The position numbers were made by a program, and so were the translations under genes. The notes beneath the pieces were generated by a model that was not told the DNA's origin, did not search any database, and saw only the letters and a list, made by a program, of their open reading frames with translations. Positions 2,311 through 16,298 of a stretch of 64,000 nt of DNA are shown here, in pieces. Numbering within the stretch: the first letter of the stretch is position 1; each line of letters opens with the position of its first letter. Origin of the DNA: Dictyostelium discoideum (taxonomy: Eukaryota); assembly GCA_000004695.1 (NCBI GenBank), contig CM000151.3:7872001-7936000 (forward strand). Reading direction: 5' to 3'.

Positions 2311-2571
2311 ATTTATAAATATATATAATTAATAATTATATAATTGAATAATACTTTGTTATCTTTATTTAATATTAGTTTATATTTATAATATTCAATA
2401 TTGTTTATAAAATTATTCTTTAGTATTTATATTATTTATAATGAGTTGACAGTATTATTATTATTATTATTATTATATTATTTAAATGTGTGTCAACTAT
2501 AATTAGTAATGTAATATGCATATTTAATATCTATTAATTTTATAGAGTAACTTTATTACATATCCCCCCCT
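2311..2571 (-). repeat. 3-prime LTR, missing its terminal ~19 bp where it abuts the oligo(A) end of the TRE5-A C-module
   Basis: Alignment with 4668-4916. The expected terminal gctaacaagctttattaca is absent. PPT at 2572-2586. Confidence 0.65.
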
Positions 2572-2572
2572 T

Positions 2573-3183
2573 TTAGTTGAAAATTTTTTTCAATCTTTCA
2601 ATATTGACTACTTTATGATCTCTAAGATTACCCATATCTAATTTGAATGTAACATCGCTAACTTTTTCTTGAACTTTAAAAGGACCTCTCCAAGGTTTAT
2701 AGAATTTCTTTGGACCAATAGAAGTTTGTGAATATGGTGTATGTAAATAAACAAAATCACCTGTTTGAATATTTGTTGGACGACGACCTTTATCATAATT
2801 TGTTTTTTGTAATTCTTGAGCTTTATCGAGATTATTCTTTGTAAACCAAAAGGCACGTTTAAGATTATTATTTACGGATTGTGCATAATTATCAGCGAAA
2901 TCTAATCTTAGTGAATTTGTACATGGATTTCTTATTAATGGTTGAATTGAAGTTATTTGTGATTTAATTATTGAATTCTCTGTTTGATTTAATGATATTG
3001 ATTTTAATGGTAAATTTGATGTTATTGGTGAATCTATTGGTTCTTGGAATAAGAATTCTGGAATATCGTAATCTATTGGTAGTTGTTCTTCAATAGTTGG
3101 ATACGATTTGATTGATAGTATATGATGAGAATTAAAATTTTCAATTAAATGATCAGTATCTGTTAATAATTCTGATTTTGATG

Positions 3184-3217
<34 letters not shown>

Positions 3218-4469
3218 TGAATAATCAGATACTGTTTTAAATATAGTTTGTATACATGGTTGGGTTTCTTTAGATATTAATTTGGTACCAACATTGAATT
3301 CAAGATTCTTAATGATCATTTCTTTAAAATCAATTACTAAATTTAATCCAATTATTGTATCAATGCCAAATATACAATCAATTGATGTATCATTATCTTT
3401 AACAACATTAACTTTAACTCTAGCGAATGCTTTACCTAATTTAATTGTTGTGTTACTTATTCCAATGATTTTGATTTCATTATTTGATGCTGATTTAACA
3501 GAATATTGTTTATTTTCAATCTTTAATTTTAACTTTTTAGCAATACTTTCCCAAACAATAGTAAGTGATGAACCAGTATCAATCAAACCTCTAACATTTT
3601 TATTATTTATTAATAAAGCTGCATTCATACTATCTATTCCGATTGAATTAATTGTACTATTATTGACCATTGTAATTGAATTAGTTCTATTATTGTAATT
3701 GTTATTATTATTTTTATCTTTTGACCAACACTCTTGAATTACATGACCTTTCTTTTTGCAGTATTTACAAAATTTTGTGATTGAATTTACTTGATTTTGT
3801 GGTGCTTTATAAGGGGATGATTGTGGTGAATATGTTTGATTTTTATAAATTGGAGTTGCTAATACTTCAGTTTCAGTAGATTGTTCAGTTTGAGATGTAA
3901 CGTACTGTGGTGATGTTGTATAACCAGATCTAGAACCAAGATACTTTTGAGTTCCAAATTCTTGTAATGTTTTTGCAACCAATTGACCAGTATACATTGA
4001 TCTACCTCTCATACGAATTGAACCATCTTCACAAGACTTTGCAATATCTATTGCTCTTTTTAATGATTTTGGTGCACATTTTGTAATTTCAATACCCAAT
4101 TCAGTACCAACAGCTGAATAAAACAATTGTATTTTAAACTTTTCTGAAATATCAACTGCTGAACATTTTGATAGAAATTTACCAATTAATATATCTAATG
4201 TATTGTATTTATATTCTCCCAACTTTGTTAATTCTGTTAAATCATCACTATCACCAATATCAAAAGCATCTTTAAGATCTTCAATTATCTCCATTGCTGT
4301 TAAGTCTGTATCCAATGTTGCGGCATATTCCAATGCATTGTTTCTTAGTTTTCTAATAATATCAGCTTTCGATATTTCCTCGCCATGAATTAGTAAGAGT
4401 AAGTGTTTGAATTTACGAAATGATAAACCTTTTCCATCGCCCGAAAAAATTATGTTTTCATTATTATTC

Positions 4470-4471
<2 letters not shown>
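2573..4471 (-). CDS. gag-pro-(deleted pol)-integrase C-terminus fusion ORF of the LTR element (632 aa)
   Basis: CCHC zinc knuckle CKYCKKKGHVIQEC. Aspartic protease motif LIDTGSSL. The C-terminus ...GDFVYLHTP...KPWRGPFKV...FKL...H.VVNIERLKK is typical of Ty3/gypsy integrase tails. No RT or RNase H motifs lie between. Confidence 0.6.
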
Positions 4472-4539
<68 letters not shown>

Positions 4540-4635
4540 TATTAAATTAAATTTAATCTAATGTACAATTTTAATTGATTGAATAATTTGATAACTTTAT
4601 ATTTATAGTATATTTTTTTTTTTTTTTTTGAAAGA

Positions 4636-4646
4636 CGATGTCGCCA
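4636..4646 (-). promoter_or_regulatory. Primer-binding site of the LTR element, TGGCGACATCG in element sense
   Basis: The + strand reads CGATGTCGCCA, identical to the last 8 nt of the tRNA-Ser(AGA) gene at 6701-6782 plus CCA. It lies 2 nt from the LTR end. Confidence 0.55.
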
Positions 4647-4648
4647 AA

Positions 4649-4916
4649 TGTAATAAAGCTTGTTAGCTTTATAAATATATATAATTAATAATTATATAAT
4701 TGAATAATACTTTGTTATCTTTATTTAATATTAGTTTATATTTATAATATTCAATATTGTTTATAAAATTATTCTTTAGTATTTATATTATTTATAATGA
4801 GTTGACAGTATTATTATTATTATTATTATTATATTATTTAAATGTGTGTCAACTATAATTAGTAATGTAATATGCATATTTAATATCTATTAATTTTATA
4901 GAGTAACTTTATTACA
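4649..4916 (-). repeat. 5-prime LTR, 268 bp
   Basis: TG...CA ends. Identical to the copy at 2311-2571 except that copy lacks the last 19 bp. Confidence 0.7.
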
Positions 4917-4949
4917 TTAGAATTAATTTACGTAATAAAACCTCTTTTG

Positions 4950-5056
4950 TAAGTTTGGAAACAAATCATCCCGTTCGATCTGATAAGTAAATCGACCTCA
5001 GGCCTTCCAAGTACTCTGGTTGGAGACAACAGGGGAACATAGGGTGCTGTATACTT
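4950..5056 (+). pseudogene. 5S rRNA-derived sequence, 5-prime truncated by ~15-17 nt. It is followed by a TTTATTT terminator-like run, 11 nt and poly(A), and flanked by aaaacctcttttg direct repeats, so it looks like a retropseudogene.
   Basis: ...GTTTGGAAACAAATCATCCCGTTCGATCTGATAAGTAAATCGACCTCAGGCCTTCCAAGTACTCTGGTTGGAGACAACAGGGGAACATAGGGTGCTGTATAC matches the eukaryotic 5S consensus, including box-C-like CCCGTTCGATC and the 3-prime GGGTGCTGTATAC. The 5-prime strand of helix I (GTATACGGCCATAC) is missing. Poly(A) at 5072-5103. Direct repeats at 4937-4949 and 5100-5112. Confidence 0.55.
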
Positions 5057-5070
5057 TATTTACTCCGATT

Positions 5071-5099
<29 letters not shown>

Positions 5100-5106
<7 letters not shown>

Positions 5107-5199
5107 CTTTTGCATGACCCTGTAAAAAAAAAAAAAAAATAAAATAAAATGAGATCTAGAATCTCAAGGACAAGCAAATAATAATTGCGTTATCCAATT

Positions 5200-5234
<35 letters not shown>

Positions 5235-5243
5235 CTTTTGCAT
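5100..5243 (+). mobile_element. Solo TRE5-A C-module (extreme 5-prime truncation) with a 15-16-bp target-site duplication aaaacctcttttgcat
   Basis: C-module at 5117-5231 (gaccctgtaaaa...aaatgagatctagaatctcaaggacaagcaaataataattgcgttatccaattc + A-run). Identical 16-mers at 5100-5115 and 5228-5243. Confidence 0.7.
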
Positions 5244-5489
5244 TTATTACAATTATCTTAAATTTATGTCAAATAATATTTCAAATTAATAATTAATTAA
5301 TTTATTATAAATATAAAAAAATTATTTAATTTTAATTAGGCTGTTAATTTCATTGTTAAACGATAAAATCTATTAAATAAAAATATAAATAAATAAATTA
5401 ATATATAAAGTGTTTTAAAGATTATTAAATATAAAATAAAGATTAAATTTTAAATATAAATAAAAACTATAATATTTGTAAAATAATAA

Positions 5490-5955
5490 TTACAAAAGAC
5501 CACTTTCGTTACATTTAAAGGTATAGATCGGAAATAAGATTACATTCAAGATAAAAGTGGAGCTTCCAAAATAACGTGGAGTGGAAATATTCAACAAACT
5601 GGATATTCCACTAACAGCCAACGCCATAGCTATAATATGTGAAAACATTTGGAAAAGAAGAAACAAAAGAATACACGAAGAAATCACTCTCAAAAACTTA
5701 AGAAAAGAAAAACCCAAACATCTTTTAATGAAAACGCAAGAAGCTGCCTGGGAAAGAACCAAAAAAACATATATAAATTAATAAGACAATCAAAAAAAGC
5801 AACAAAGATTGAAGCATCGAAAAAATTCAAATCCATCATCACCTCACAACTCGAAATATTCAGCAAAAACTAGAACTCTCCTCTATACATAGCAACACTA
5901 ATACCAAACCTAAACAAATATATAACATCACTCAACACACTCTATACCCTCAACA

Positions 5956-6018
<63 letters not shown>

Positions 6019-6150
6019 TAATACCACCCAAAAAAAAAAAAAAAAAAAAAAAAAGGGGACCATTGTAAAATTTAAACCTACTATAATGAAATGAGAAGAA
6101 TCTCTAGAAGAAGCAACTCACAATTGCGTTACTCCATTCAAAAAAAAAAT
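5490..6150 (+). mobile_element. 5-prime-truncated 3-prime fragment of a non-A member of the TRE5 family (TRE5-B/C-like): degenerate ORF2 C-terminus plus a diverged C-module and oligo(A)
   Basis: Translation 5581-5781 (...LDIPLTANAIAIICENIWKRRNKRIHEEI...KTQEAAWERTKK) is ~45 % identical to the TRE5-A ORF2 C-terminus (LQIALVANLIAIIFDKIWHKRNKLIHDEKEI...KTQRAAWDRTQ). 6060-6150 (aaatgagaagaatctctagaagaagcaactcacaattgcgttactccattcaaaaaaaa) is homologous to the TRE5-A C-module. A-runs at 5960-6055. Confidence 0.5.
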
Positions 6151-6700: not shown

Positions 6701-6782
6701 CGACATCGGCAGGGTTCGAACCTGCGCCCCCGAAGGGATCTGATTTCTAGTCAGACGCATTAGACCACTTTGCTACGATGTC
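6701..6782 (-). tRNA. tRNA-Ser (anticodon AGA), class II with a long variable arm, no intron
   Basis: Reverse complement: GACATCG TA GCA AAGTGGTCTAA TGC G TCTGA CTAGAAA TCAGA TCCCTTCGGGGGC GCAGG TTCGAAC CCTGC CGATGTC G. The 7-bp acceptor stem pairs, the T-arm is GCAGG/TTCGAAC/CCTGC, the anticodon loop is CT-AGA-AA, the A box is TAGCAAAGTGG and the B box GGTTCGAACCC. A T5 Pol III terminator lies 5 nt downstream on the - strand (6692-6696). Confidence 0.9.
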
Positions 6783-6813
6783 TTTGAAGTTTAGAATGAA
6801 CGTCGTATCTCAA

Positions 6814-6829
6814 ATTGTATGAAATTTAA
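6814..6829. repeat. Target-site duplication copy 1, (a)ttgtatgaaatttaa(g), 32-47 bp upstream of the tRNA-Ser gene
   Basis: The same 15-16-mer recurs at 9595-9610 and 15343-15358, each at a TRE5-A boundary. Confidence 0.8.
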
Positions 6830-7580: not shown

Positions 7581-8915
7581 ATGAAAATCACAAACAACAC
7601 CACAAATATTAAGCAACACAAATGCCTACAAAAAATAAGCGAAATTGTGGATAAAACTCAATTAAAAAAAAAACAATTCAAATACGTCATAAACATCAAT
7701 CACGAACCAGACGATAAAATAAAAAAAGATTTAGAAAAAAGTTTGGACAAAAAAGATGTTTTAATCAAAAGTAATAATACATTCAAAATTCTCACAGACA
7801 GTATTAGTACAGTAATCTATTTTGTAAATATGTTTGATGCAGAATTAAAAGGACAATTTATAACCACTATAAGACCAAAAAATATGTATACAGATTTTGA
7901 TTGGTATAAATCACTCACAGAAATAGAATGGGTAATAGAAAATGAAGGATGTAAACTAATTAAATCAGAAATTAAAGGCGAAACTCTAATTATCAAAACA
8001 GTGAAAAGAGTCGTAGAAGAATTTGACACTATCATTGAACTAGACAATCTAACATTAATTGGACACTCCAACAAAGGATGGAGAGATCAAACCTCATTAC
8101 CAGAAAATCAAGAAGAAAACAAAAATAAAAAACAATCAGATGAACAACAACCACAATCTACATCAGAACAAATACCAAAACAAGGAAAAAGAACAATCAT
8201 TATCCCACCAATCACATCCTCATCTAATGATAAAACATTTATGGCCCTAGATGATACAGCTCAAAAGGTAATAGAAGCATCACTAGAAAACGTAGATGAA
8301 CTAACAAGAATAGAGAATGAGATCAATACACAATCGATAAACAATCAAGAAATTAAAACAAAATCAGAAAAACCTATCGAACCACCATCTCCATACAATA
8401 CACCAATAAAACAACACGGCGAAACAAAGGGACTAACAACGGAAGAAAAACTTAGAGAAGCAAATGATATCTTCGACTTCACCAGCCCAAACACTGATGC
8501 AATAAGAAAAATAGAATTCCCACTTTCAATCCCTTCAAATCAATGGTTCTTCTCCTCTCCAATAAAACATATCATGAGTTTCAGCCCAACCTATGGTACA
8601 CCATCGAAAATTATCGATTCACCAAGTAAATTGTTAAACACACCAAAAAAGAAACAACAAGACAAAACAAACAAGACCAACAAAACACCAGTCAAACCAA
8701 AATTGGGTGAATATGGACAAAAAAGCATAAAAACAAAAATGGATGAAGATATAGACAACTTCAACAAGGAAATTCTAAAACAAATCAATAAATCAAAAAA
8801 CCCCACAAACACACAAGACCAACAACACAATGAACAAAGTAAAGATCAGTTAGAAGACAAAATAAACCAGAAACTTCAAAAGGTAGATAAAAATCTACCC
8901 CAAATAAAACTATAA
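7581..8915 (+). CDS. TRE5-A ORF1 protein
   Basis: 444-aa ORF, ~99 % identical to 301-1635 and 10048-11382. Confidence 0.85.
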   Translation: MKITNNTTNIKQHKCLQKISEIVDKTQLKKKQFKYVININHEPDDKIKKDLEKSLDKKDVLIKSNNTFKILTDSISTVIYFVNMFDAELKGQFITTIRPKNMYTDFDWYKSLTEIEWVIENEGCKLIKSEIKGETLIIKTVKRVVEEFDTIIELDNLTLIGHSNKGWRDQTSLPENQEENKNKKQSDEQQPQSTSEQIPKQGKRTIIIPPITSSSNDKTFMALDDTAQKVIEASLENVDELTRIENEINTQSINNQEIKTKSEKPIEPPSPYNTPIKQHGETKGLTTEEKLREANDIFDFTSPNTDAIRKIEFPLSIPSNQWFFSSPIKHIMSFSPTYGTPSKIIDSPSKLLNTPKKKQQDKTNKTNKTPVKPKLGEYGQKSIKTKMDEDIDNFNKEILKQINKSKNPTNTQDQQHNEQSKDQLEDKINQKLQKVDKNLPQIKL

Positions 8916-14887: not shown

Positions 14888-15311
14888 GGAACCCAAGTTA
14901 ATCAGAAAATTTCCAGATTTTTAACTTTTTAAAGAAAAATATAAAAAATAGAAAGAAAATAAAATGAAAATCACAAACAACACCACAAATATTAAGCAAC
15001 ACAAATGCCTACAAAAAATAAGCGAAATTGTGGATAAAACTCAATTAAAAAAAAAACAATTCAAATACGTCATAAACATCAATCACGAACCAGACGATAA
15101 AATAAAAAAAGATTTAGAAAAAAGTTTGGACAAAAAAGATGTTTTAATCAAAAGTAATAATACAATTCAAAATTCGAAACAAAAAAAAAAAAAAAAAAAA
15201 AAAAGTAAACTAACCCCTCTTTTAGAGACCCTGTAAAAAAAAAAAAAAAAATAAAATAAAATGAGATCTAACATCTCAAGGAGAAGCAAATAATAATTGC
15301 GTTATCCAATT

Positions 15312-15360: not shown

Positions 15361-15535
15361 GTAAAAAACTATAAATAAAATGAGATCTAGCATCTCAAGG
15401 AGAAACAACCAATAATTACGTTATCCAAAAAAAAAACAAAAAAATTATATGAAATTTAACATTTTAATGAGATCTAGCATCTCAAGGAGAAGCAACAAAT
15501 AATTGCGTTATCCAATTCAAAAATAAAAAAATCTA
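15361..15535 (+). mobile_element. Two partial TRE5-A C-module remnants, each followed by a degenerate copy of the TSD (attatatgaaatttaa at 15441-15456; tctatgaaatac at 15531-15542)
   Basis: aaatgagatctagcatctcaaggagaaacaaccaataattacgttatccaaaaaaa and aatgagatctagcatctcaaggagaagcaacaaataattgcgttatccaattcaaaaa. Confidence 0.65.
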
Positions 15536-16298
15536 TGAAATACTTATAATATTTTGTATACTTGTGTGACCCTTGAACACACATAAATAATTAATAATAA
15601 ATTATAAATAATATTATATCTCTATATAATATTATATGTAATAAAGTTTTATTTATAAGTTTTGTTTGTGCACAATTTGGAATAAAACAACAACGAAATA
15701 TTTTTATTTTATTTTACTATTTATACTAAAATTAATTTTACTAAAGAAACCGTTGGTAAAATTTCTGAGAATAAAGTAAGAATATTGTATTTGTTAACGT
15801 CTTTTCAGTTACAGACTATTTCCATATTTGTATTTTACCAGGGATAAAAACTTTATAAATTAATTTATGTCCCTTAATTATTCTCGATTATTACAAAGAT
15901 TCAAATTCATCACGTAGTCAGGCCCTTTTTCTTTCAGAATAATTTATTCATACATAAAATATACTTACCTCTTCTAATTGTATTTAATATAATAAGATTT
16001 ATTTGATCACAACTTTATTTTTATCTTATTTTTACTATTTATGCGATGTATTTTCTGAAGGCCTAATAACAAATAGTAGAGAGGATTTAGAAAAATCCCA
16101 AACATCATCTCCATCAGCTTGAAAGATTTAGTTAACACTGGAACTCTCCCCTCCTCACAGTATCAAACCTTATACAATAAATCACGTCCCTAAACACTCT
16201 CTTTAAAAAAAAATTAAATAAATAAAAAAAAAAAAAAAAATTCTTTTTATTTGTGATTTTTTTAATTATTGTTACAAACTTTTTTAAGCTTTTTTTTT

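Follow-up and report, generated by a model that had tools for sequence, protein, structure and literature searches.

The DNA analysed here, a window of 64,000 nucleotides, belongs to chromosome 2 of Dictyostelium discoideum AX4, near DDB_G0277367; this gene and the ORF1 of TRE5-A are both matched exactly. In its left part a segment derived from 5S rRNA is lodged between an LTR element and a series of TRE5 sequences, with the following features.

4649 to 4917, minus strand: 5' LTR of an internally deleted DGLT-A (whole element 2312-4917), ending 19 nt from the target-site duplication
4937 to 4949, plus strand: target-site duplication copy 1, aaaacctcttttg, at the 5' junction of the putative 5S chimera; exact repeat of 5100-5112, with a single-copy ortholog in the relatives L029 and L030
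4950 to 4951, plus strand: junction bases ta, either filler or 5S nt 15-16 if a gap is allowed, ungapped and gapped alignments being equally good
4952 to 5055, plus strand: 5S rRNA-derived segment, nt 16-119, without strand 1 of helix I and with the internal control region kept (101/104 to L001:2088-2191; Rfam)
5056 to 5059, plus strand: tt, making T3 with T5055 (read as the Pol III U-tail of the 5S transcript), then at; the L001 gene has a direct T4 terminator
5060 to 5071, plus strand: TTACTCCGATTC, which its edit distance to C-module termini assigns to a TRE5 C-module (TRE5-C-like variant) as the last 11-12 nt of the 3' end
5072 to 5099, plus strand: poly(A) tail of the putative chimera, A28 (A32 with the A's of the repeat)
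5100 to 5115, plus strand: target-site duplication copy 2, aaaacctcttttgcat, an exact repeat common to both insertions
5116 to 5200, plus strand: solo TRE5-A C-module, the 3'-terminal 85 nt from gaccctgt, aligning with the C-modules at 2222, 9503 and 15227
5201 to 5229, plus strand: poly(A) tail of the solo C-module (A31 at 5201-5231)
5230 to 5243, plus strand: target-site duplication copy 3, aacctcttttgcat, exact repeat
5497 to 6149, plus strand: 5'-truncated TRE5-C-like element, given for context; its 3' terminus is the nearest match to the 5S tail

The sole match to the Rfam 5S_rRNA model in the 64-kb window covers 4936-5055 on the plus strand (46.8 bits for a gathering score of 38, E-value 1.4e-6), with all pairs of helix I flagged as non-standard. 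The reference for comparison was an intact 5S gene from a close dictyostelid relative (L001:2073-2191), on a 2.5-kb public metagenome contig retrieved by scanning for an internal 5S 21-mer. This was the sole contig obtained from exact-pattern scans of metagenome, prokaryote-genome and viral collections. The reference gene scores 95.9 bits and has a T4 terminator immediately 3'. Aligned without gaps, 4952-5055 is identical at 101 of 104 bases to nt 16-119 of this gene (L001:2088-2191), the three differences being G18T, C28A and A106G, the first two at most 13 nt from the 5' junction of the segment; in this alignment no counterpart of nt 1-15 is present upstream of 4952. The preliminary description of the locus, made from the sequence, had recognized a 5S match deprived of its first ~15 nt, and an alignment that begins at nt 16 agrees with it; the match that it quoted is also real, except that homology begins at 4952 (AGTTTGGAAAC), 19 nt before the quoted start, CCCGTTCG.

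A functional 5S gene would have its full length of ~119 nt, with nt 1-9 paired to nt 110-118, and would be directly followed by a Pol III terminator of at least four T's, within an rDNA context. The window copy has neither this length nor this pairing, and it is followed by T3, a TRE5 tail and poly(A), on chromosome 2. [quoted passage not shown] What is found in the window is a real, 5'-truncated retrocopy of 5S rRNA, and probably a young one. With nt 1-15 missing, it was rightly called a pseudogene rather than a 5S gene, and the Rfam match at this locus should not receive a chromosomal 5S gene annotation.

The signs of a retrocopy made by target-primed reverse transcription (TPRT) are all there. 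A target-site duplication is visible as exact 13-nt repeats (4937-4949 and 5100-5112), the poly(A), an A28-32 run, lies beside the downstream repeat, the 5S sequence is 5'-truncated, starting at nt 16, and the orthologous site is unoccupied in L029 and L030. A single duplication pair encloses the 5S segment together with its tail, and there is neither a repeat copy nor an A-run between 4950 and 5071. The 11-mer AACCTCTTTTG is present at exactly three sites in the 64 kb, 4939, 5102 and 5230, all of them at the 5S locus. The layout, from left to right, is repeat, putative 5S chimera, repeat, solo C-module, repeat, copies 1 and 2 having aaaacctcttttg (13 nt) in common and copies 2 and 3 aacctcttttgcat (14 nt, plus A's). 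The 13-bp direct repeats and poly(A) first noted around the 5S copy are confirmed by exact copies of the 13-mer; similarly, use of the same target at least twice, proposed at the same time, is witnessed by the third repeat copy, which closes the adjacent solo C-module.

Orthologous regions were retrieved from other assemblies via the neighbouring gene DDB_G0277367. Two of them, L029 and L030, are labelled D. discoideum and are ~9% diverged, and they do not come from the same species-level lineage. In both, the target is single, without 5S or C-module (L029:8446-8476, gtaatgaaacctctttcgctttcattaca; L030:~2440-2460, gacctttttcgctttcattaca), and the right flank is conserved to window position 5515. 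The consequence of these empty sites is that aaaacctcttttgcat is host sequence, and that the 5S copy and the solo C-module are insertions. Of the other regions, L028 (assembly GCA_054883475.1) is syntenic but begins at window ~7390, past the 5S locus, and L031 (D. cf. discoideum) is rearranged and uninformative. The target itself is a small palindrome (GTAATAAA - acctcttttgca - TTTATTAC; window 4930-4949 and 5241-5252), with arms that resemble the termini of the DGLT-A LTR (TGTAATAAAG...CTTTATTACA). A related copy of the palindrome lies ~250 nt to the right, at 5474-5512, and both copies are conserved in relatives (L029:8446-8476 and 8590-8620; L030:2815-2845).

The solo C-module beside the 5S copy belongs to an ordinary class, that of 5'-truncated TRE5-A insertions. 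Its 5' boundary, gaccctgt, is also found in L005:13829 and at the end of the TRE5-A.2 deletion, where 87 nt are retained (PMC3159450). In position-specific TRE5 integration, it is usual for one duplication to serve several insertions in succession. As cases in point, tatatataatttt is found four times in L008, around TRE5-A and TRE5-C-like elements that form a mixed array, gttttgtaattaaaat at least seven times in L004, around tandem TRE5-A 3' fragments, and, in the window, attgtatgaaatttaa recurs at 6814, 9596 and 15344, with a degenerate copy at 15446, upstream of tRNA-Ser(AGA). In these three arrays (window, L004 and L008) the tRNA gene is always to the left, in minus orientation, and the first duplication copy begins 31-34 nt from the tRNA 5' end. 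A scan of 15 loci (L002-L016) showed the same in most of them, a plus-strand TRE5-A having as its nearest tRNA gene a minus-strand one immediately to its left.

Several details of these arrays deserve to be recorded. Seven tandem TRE5-A 3' fragments occupy L004:11990-13420, two of them being ~17-25 nt long and one having the variant tail gcgttgtacgatt. At L005:13807-13920 a solo C-module starting from gaccctgt lies 54 bp upstream of tRNA-Ser(GCT), and seven extra bases, ATCCAAT, identical to the 3' terminus of the C-module itself, separate the duplication from the element, which suggests a template jump. The 8-mer CCTCTTTT has just 8 occurrences in the window, both strands counted. In the canonical TRE5-A.1 C-module (cccctcttttaga followed by gaccctgt) it is placed 3-4 nt upstream of GACCCTGT. 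It is found again in the host target beside the solo C-module (aacctcttttgcat followed by gaccctgt; window 5104-5111 and 15216-15223), and the same arrangement is seen in L003, L004, L006, L007 and L008. The chance of this coincidence is ~1e-4, and it may reflect microhomology-assisted 5' joining of the solo C-module, with gcat versus aga fitting no simple annealing.

Further to the right, the element at 5497-6149 has a C-module ~80% identical to that of TRE5-A, while the C-terminus of its ORF2 is ~50% identical to TRE5-A and 77% to L008:12055-12237; a protein search with its 66-aa ORF gave no match. Like TRE5-A, TRE5-C terminates in a C-module (PMC3159450), and from this account and its own C-module the element may be named TRE5-C-like. 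It sits 551 bp downstream of tRNA-Ser(AGA), with no upstream tRNA gene in the window. At the orthologous spot, L029 and L030 have a 30-nt 5' fragment of a tRNA-Leu(TAA) gene, so that the target of the element may have been lost in AX4.

Past base 5055, the last of the 5S segment, come tt (5056-5057), at (5058-5059), ttactccgattc (5060-5071) and an unbroken A32 (5072-5103), the last four A's of which are ambiguous with the repeat, making the run either A28 or A32. A single edit, an extra G in the 5S tail, separates TTACTCCGATTC from GTTACTCCATTC(A)n at 6128-6139, the terminus of the TRE5-C-like copy, and two edits separate it from GTTATCCAATTC, the terminus of TRE5-A C-modules in at least 23 copies. 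Other TRE5 C-modules end with GTTATTCTATTC in L008 and GTTATTCCATTC in L012. Because there are 1126 runs of at least 10 A's in 375 kb of D. discoideum DNA, A-runs alone are uninformative in this genome. When all these runs are used as an empirical null and judged by the bases that precede them, an edit distance of at most 1 from a TRE5 terminus is reached only by 31 true C-modules (one decayed) and by the 5S tail; the empirical rate of such proximity is about 1 in 1000 A-runs. The 17-mer that follows 5S was not found as part of another repeat in ~590 kb. The 5S gene of L001, the close relative, is natively flanked on its 3' side by TTTTAATATTTTTTGTC, where the window has ATTTACTCCGATTC, the two diverging from the first base past the T-run. 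Two other readings of this region were considered and rejected: the ORF1 string ttatcgattc as the source of the tail, as it is located within a coding region with no adjoining poly(A), and A32 plus cctcttttgcat as the 5' half of a C-module (canonically A(n)gtaaactaacccctcttttaga followed by gaccctgt), since the 14-mer is found 3' of the poly(A) at 5230, comes before 5S at 4937 and has one copy in each of L029 and L030.

The insertion is made of two parts in the same orientation. The 3' part has the 3' terminus of an active LINE together with its poly(A), an assignment to which a tail of 12 nt gives moderate support. The 5' part stops where the cellular RNA natively ends, at nt 119 plus T3. Two bases come next (at, 5058-5059), which would be non-templated additions at the template junction. 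We consider it probable that the locus is a 5S/TRE5-tail chimera, produced by one TPRT event with a template switch at a re-used TRE5 target. The switch itself would most likely have been a jump of the TRE5 reverse transcriptase onto 5S RNA, and the family that supplied the enzyme may be of the TRE5-C type rather than the TRE5-A type. The involvement of TRE-type non-LTR machinery, advanced from the start, fits the poly(A), the 13-nt duplications and the TRE5 terminus; its attribution to TRE5-A specifically fares less well, as the tail is closer to the TRE5-C-like terminus.

The sequence of events would be as follows. The TRE5 endonuclease would nick the bottom strand between ...aat and aaaacc, and reverse transcription would be primed on the poly(A) of a TRE5 RNA (TRE5-C-like or TRE5-A), recognized via its C-module hairpin. 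With no more than 12 nt copied from the 3' terminus, and the foot of the inner C-module stem just reached, the enzyme would switch to a new template, the 3' end of a 5S rRNA still carrying its U3 tail, with two bases added at the switch. It would then copy 5S RNA back to nt 16, and the cDNA would be joined to a top-strand break 13 nt downstream of the first nick, resulting in a 13-nt duplication. The solo C-module at the right comes from a separate 5'-truncated TRE5-A insertion at the same nick site, probably an earlier one.

This scheme has to be placed in the context of a severe constraint. TRE5-A depends for its retrotransposition on a hairpin located within the final 54 nt of its C-module (Siol et al., PMC3159450), and D. 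discoideum was reported to be without processed pseudogenes, a surprise to the same authors, who explain it by the strict need of TRE5-A for this hairpin (PMC3159450). As the 12-nt tail lacks the hairpin, an RNA bearing just that tail should not be a substrate for TRE5-A, while a switch that follows initiation on genuine TRE5 RNA satisfies the requirement. In the predicted fold of the C-module, the last 12 nt directly follow, on the 3' side, the strand of the inner stem that reads UUGC, which would place the chimera junction at the foot of a helix. The 17-25-nt fragments of L004 and the ATCCAAT junction of L005 further indicate that early abortion, and probably template jumping too, occurs in the TRE5 family. 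Against the chimera must be set a 12-nt tail that, with its extra G, carries little information, two bases (5058-5059) that neither template accounts for, the lack of a second 5S-TRE chimera in ~0.67 Mb and of a tRNA gene at the expected distance inside the window, and the recurrence of CCTCTTTT in both the duplication and the canonical C-module.

Rarity has been evaluated over a total of ~0.67 Mb of Dictyostelium DNA, ~2% of the genome. Neither 527 kb of sequence surrounding TRE5-A copies, nor 82 kb of four syntenic loci, nor the rest of the 64-kb window yielded a further 5S fragment. Searching for an rDNA contig with concatenated six-frame 5S peptides (spurious ORFs) returned nothing, and L017, a JGI contig matched by the spacer ORFs of L001, has no 5S. 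Among the publications searched, none was found to describe a 5S retrocopy or a chimeric retrogene in Dictyostelium, and a full-text search for the 5S sequence brought nothing relevant.

The preliminary description had a different origin in mind for the tail. The 17 nt past 5S were taken as native rDNA flank, carried by a Pol III read-through 5S transcript that would have been polyadenylated, then mobilized in trans by TRE5-A. We regard this as unlikely. Pol III transcripts are not normally polyadenylated. The last 12 of the 17 nt match the TRE5 C-module terminus, a proximity reached by ~1 in 1000 A-runs, the L001 flank TTTTAATATTTTTTGTC is unlike ATTTACTCCGATTC, and the transcript would have to be accepted by TRE5-A, which requires the C-module hairpin (PMC3159450). 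The comparison of flanks rests on L001, a close relative whose 5S differs at one base, and the T3 found past the gene is possibly a weak terminator, two points that leave the model some room; it predicts TTTATTTACTCCGATTC directly 3' of the 5S gene in D. discoideum rDNA (AY171066). The description had itself set apart the case of a tail and poly(A) belonging to a repeat, and this is probably the case here, with the repeat being the TRE5 C-module terminus. The read-through part of that model, judged on sequence, therefore probably fails and a template-switch chimera takes its place, while the retrocopy reading survives.

A pre-formed chimeric RNA, made of 5S, a short TRE5 3' fragment and poly(A), might instead have been moved as a unit, whether it arose by RNA ligation or from a 5S-headed, SINE-like master. 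Ligation is one of the two models put forward for U6/LINE-1 chimeras (bioRxiv 10.1101/2025.02.02.635956), a 5S head with a LINE tail is the build of 5S-derived SINEs, and the internal control region has been kept. Yet such an RNA would be without the C-module hairpin needed by TRE5-A, ~0.67 Mb of TRE-rich Dictyostelium DNA holds no further copy, and the lone copy is 5'-truncated, all of which makes this origin improbable as well. We hold it very doubtful that the fusion is at once a nascent SINE-like unit and an ectopic platform for Pol III. If it were, the internal control region that it has kept would recruit TFIIIA, TFIIIC and TFIIIB, and transcripts initiated in the left flank would extend over 5S, the TRE5 tail and the A-run as far as CTTTTG in the duplication. 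Elements that target tRNA genes would also be drawn to the bound complex, the DGLT-A LTR ending 19 bp upstream of the virtual 5S +1. Should other such copies exist, they would make the first SINE-type family in Dictyostelium and illustrate the origin of 5S-headed SINEs from a single template jump. A DNA-level event without reverse transcription of 5S (a piece of extrachromosomal rDNA caught at a double-strand break, or A-run recombination beside an older TRE5) is scarcely credible: the rDNA element is abundant, ~20% of nuclear DNA (PMC5391098), and A-runs are ubiquitous, but the fragment stops exactly at the RNA 3' end and its U-run with no rDNA flank on either side, exact 13-nt direct repeats bracket it with poly(A) on the 3' side only, and its orientation and anatomy agree with the neighbouring TPRT products.

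The preferred chimera, which a template switch would have made, has known counterparts in mammals. Buzdin and colleagues reportedly described, in 2002 and 2003, human and mammalian chimeric retrogenes that join U6, U3 or 5S to LINE-1. As in these U6/U3/5S-LINE-1 chimeras, a small Pol III RNA is fused in sense to the 3' end of a LINE, with a single poly(A) and one target-site duplication pair around the whole; the mechanisms proposed for the mammalian cases are a TPRT template switch or RNA ligation (bioRxiv 10.1101/2025.02.02.635956). By contrast, the LINE part is 12 nt long here, whereas it ranges from tens to thousands of nt in mammals, and the enzyme is a TRE5 one, in need of a hairpin in the 3' UTR and with a tether to Pol III genes, in an amoebozoan host. 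Human 5S/L1 chimeras are, in addition, mostly antisense and truncated at nt 46 or 90 (bioRxiv 10.1101/2025.02.02.635956), while here 5S is in sense and misses its 5' 15 nt. This kind of chimera is known from mammals; what is new is its presence in Dictyostelium and its association with a 3'-end-specific, Pol III-tethered element.

Other systems share part of this anatomy. In 5S SINEs, as they are summarized from zebrafish SINE3 (Kapitonov and Jurka, 2003) and from the fruit-bat (cited in bioRxiv 10.1101/2025.02.02.635956), one finds likewise a 5S head with its internal promoter and a tail copied from the 3' end of the partner LINE, then an A-rich end. From the same summary, these SINEs occur in many copies, begin at 5S nt 1 and carry a body that separates the head from the tail, in contrast with the single copy of the sampled DNA, which begins at nt 16 and has a 12-nt tail. 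The likeness to 5'-truncated TRE5-A insertions and tandem arrays extends to orientation, poly(A), duplications of 13-16 nt and re-use of the duplication (PMC3159450, PMC5391098), with the difference that the body is here a cellular RNA, not TRE5 sequence. Finally, as in the processed pseudogenes that LINE-1 makes in trans (Esnault et al., 2000, as cited in PMC3159450), a cellular RNA has been integrated by non-LTR machinery; the difference is that the RNA of the retrotransposon, rather than the cellular one, would here have supplied the poly(A) and the priming end. The locus is a rare exception in a genome reported to be without processed pseudogenes, and it suggests a route by which cellular RNA may enter the genome: the enzyme would start on the RNA of its own element, then jump. 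If this is correct, we have natural evidence of template switching by the TRE5 reverse transcriptase, at the base of the structure that it recognizes, and an amoebozoan instance of the fusion of a 5S head to a LINE tail, the supposed starting point of 5S-derived SINEs.

On the left of the 5S copy, DGLT-A has LTRs that are 100% identical (2312-2561 and 4668-4917), a PBS, TGGCGACATCGTCTTTC, located 2 nt from the LTR in agreement with published DGLT-A, and an ORF with protease and integrase C-terminal domains. This element is specific for tRNA genes, with published insertions 13-33 bp upstream. Its 3' LTR is without the terminal 19 nt (2293-2312 compared with 4649-4667) and the poly(A) of TRE5-A.2 abuts it at 2311/2312; TRE5-A.2 has apparently integrated into the DGLT-A LTR, as far from a tRNA gene outside the window as TRE5 elements usually are. 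The position taken as typical of TRE5 is ~48 bp upstream of a tRNA or other Pol III gene, with the 5' end of the element facing the 5' end of the gene. No tRNA gene was found left of the 5S array within the window, and the array has the same orientation as other TRE5 arrays. Neither a B box nor a weak tRNA was detected close by, and both were rejected as the target. Taken together, the orientation of the array, the presence of DGLT-A 19 nt to the left and the far LTR cut by TRE5-A.2 lead us to predict that the TRE5 tether was a tRNA gene located immediately outside the window, on its left. In L030 a degenerate minus-strand tRNA-Leu(TAA) is present to the left of the orthologous site, at a distance of 64 nt; its direction agrees with the predicted tether, and its distance exceeds the 31-34 nt of the three arrays.

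The same neighbourhood appears to have been reshuffled. The upstream flanks of tRNA-Ser(AGA) in AX4 (6783-6829 and 15531-15910) and of tRNA-Leu(TAA) in L029:7985-8397 are homologous, and this homology, which includes a ~350-nt element starting from tatacttgtgtgacccttgaacacaca, points to a rearrangement between the AX4 and L029 lineages. At L030:4611-9690 there is a full-length TRE5-C-like element (ORF1 of 459 aa, ORF2 of 926 aa, tail gcgttattccattc(A)n), between tRNA-Ser(AGA) at 4112-4193, on its upstream side, and the ortholog of DDB_G0277367 at 10001; AX4 has TRE5-A copies at this place. It is further reported that no tRNA complementary to the DGLT-A PBS could be named (PMC5006619). In the window, the first 11 nt of this PBS (TGGCGACATCG, 4630-4646, minus strand) are the exact complement of the 3' end of tRNA-Ser(AGA) plus CCA (...GCCGAUGUCG-CCA; gene at 6701-6782).
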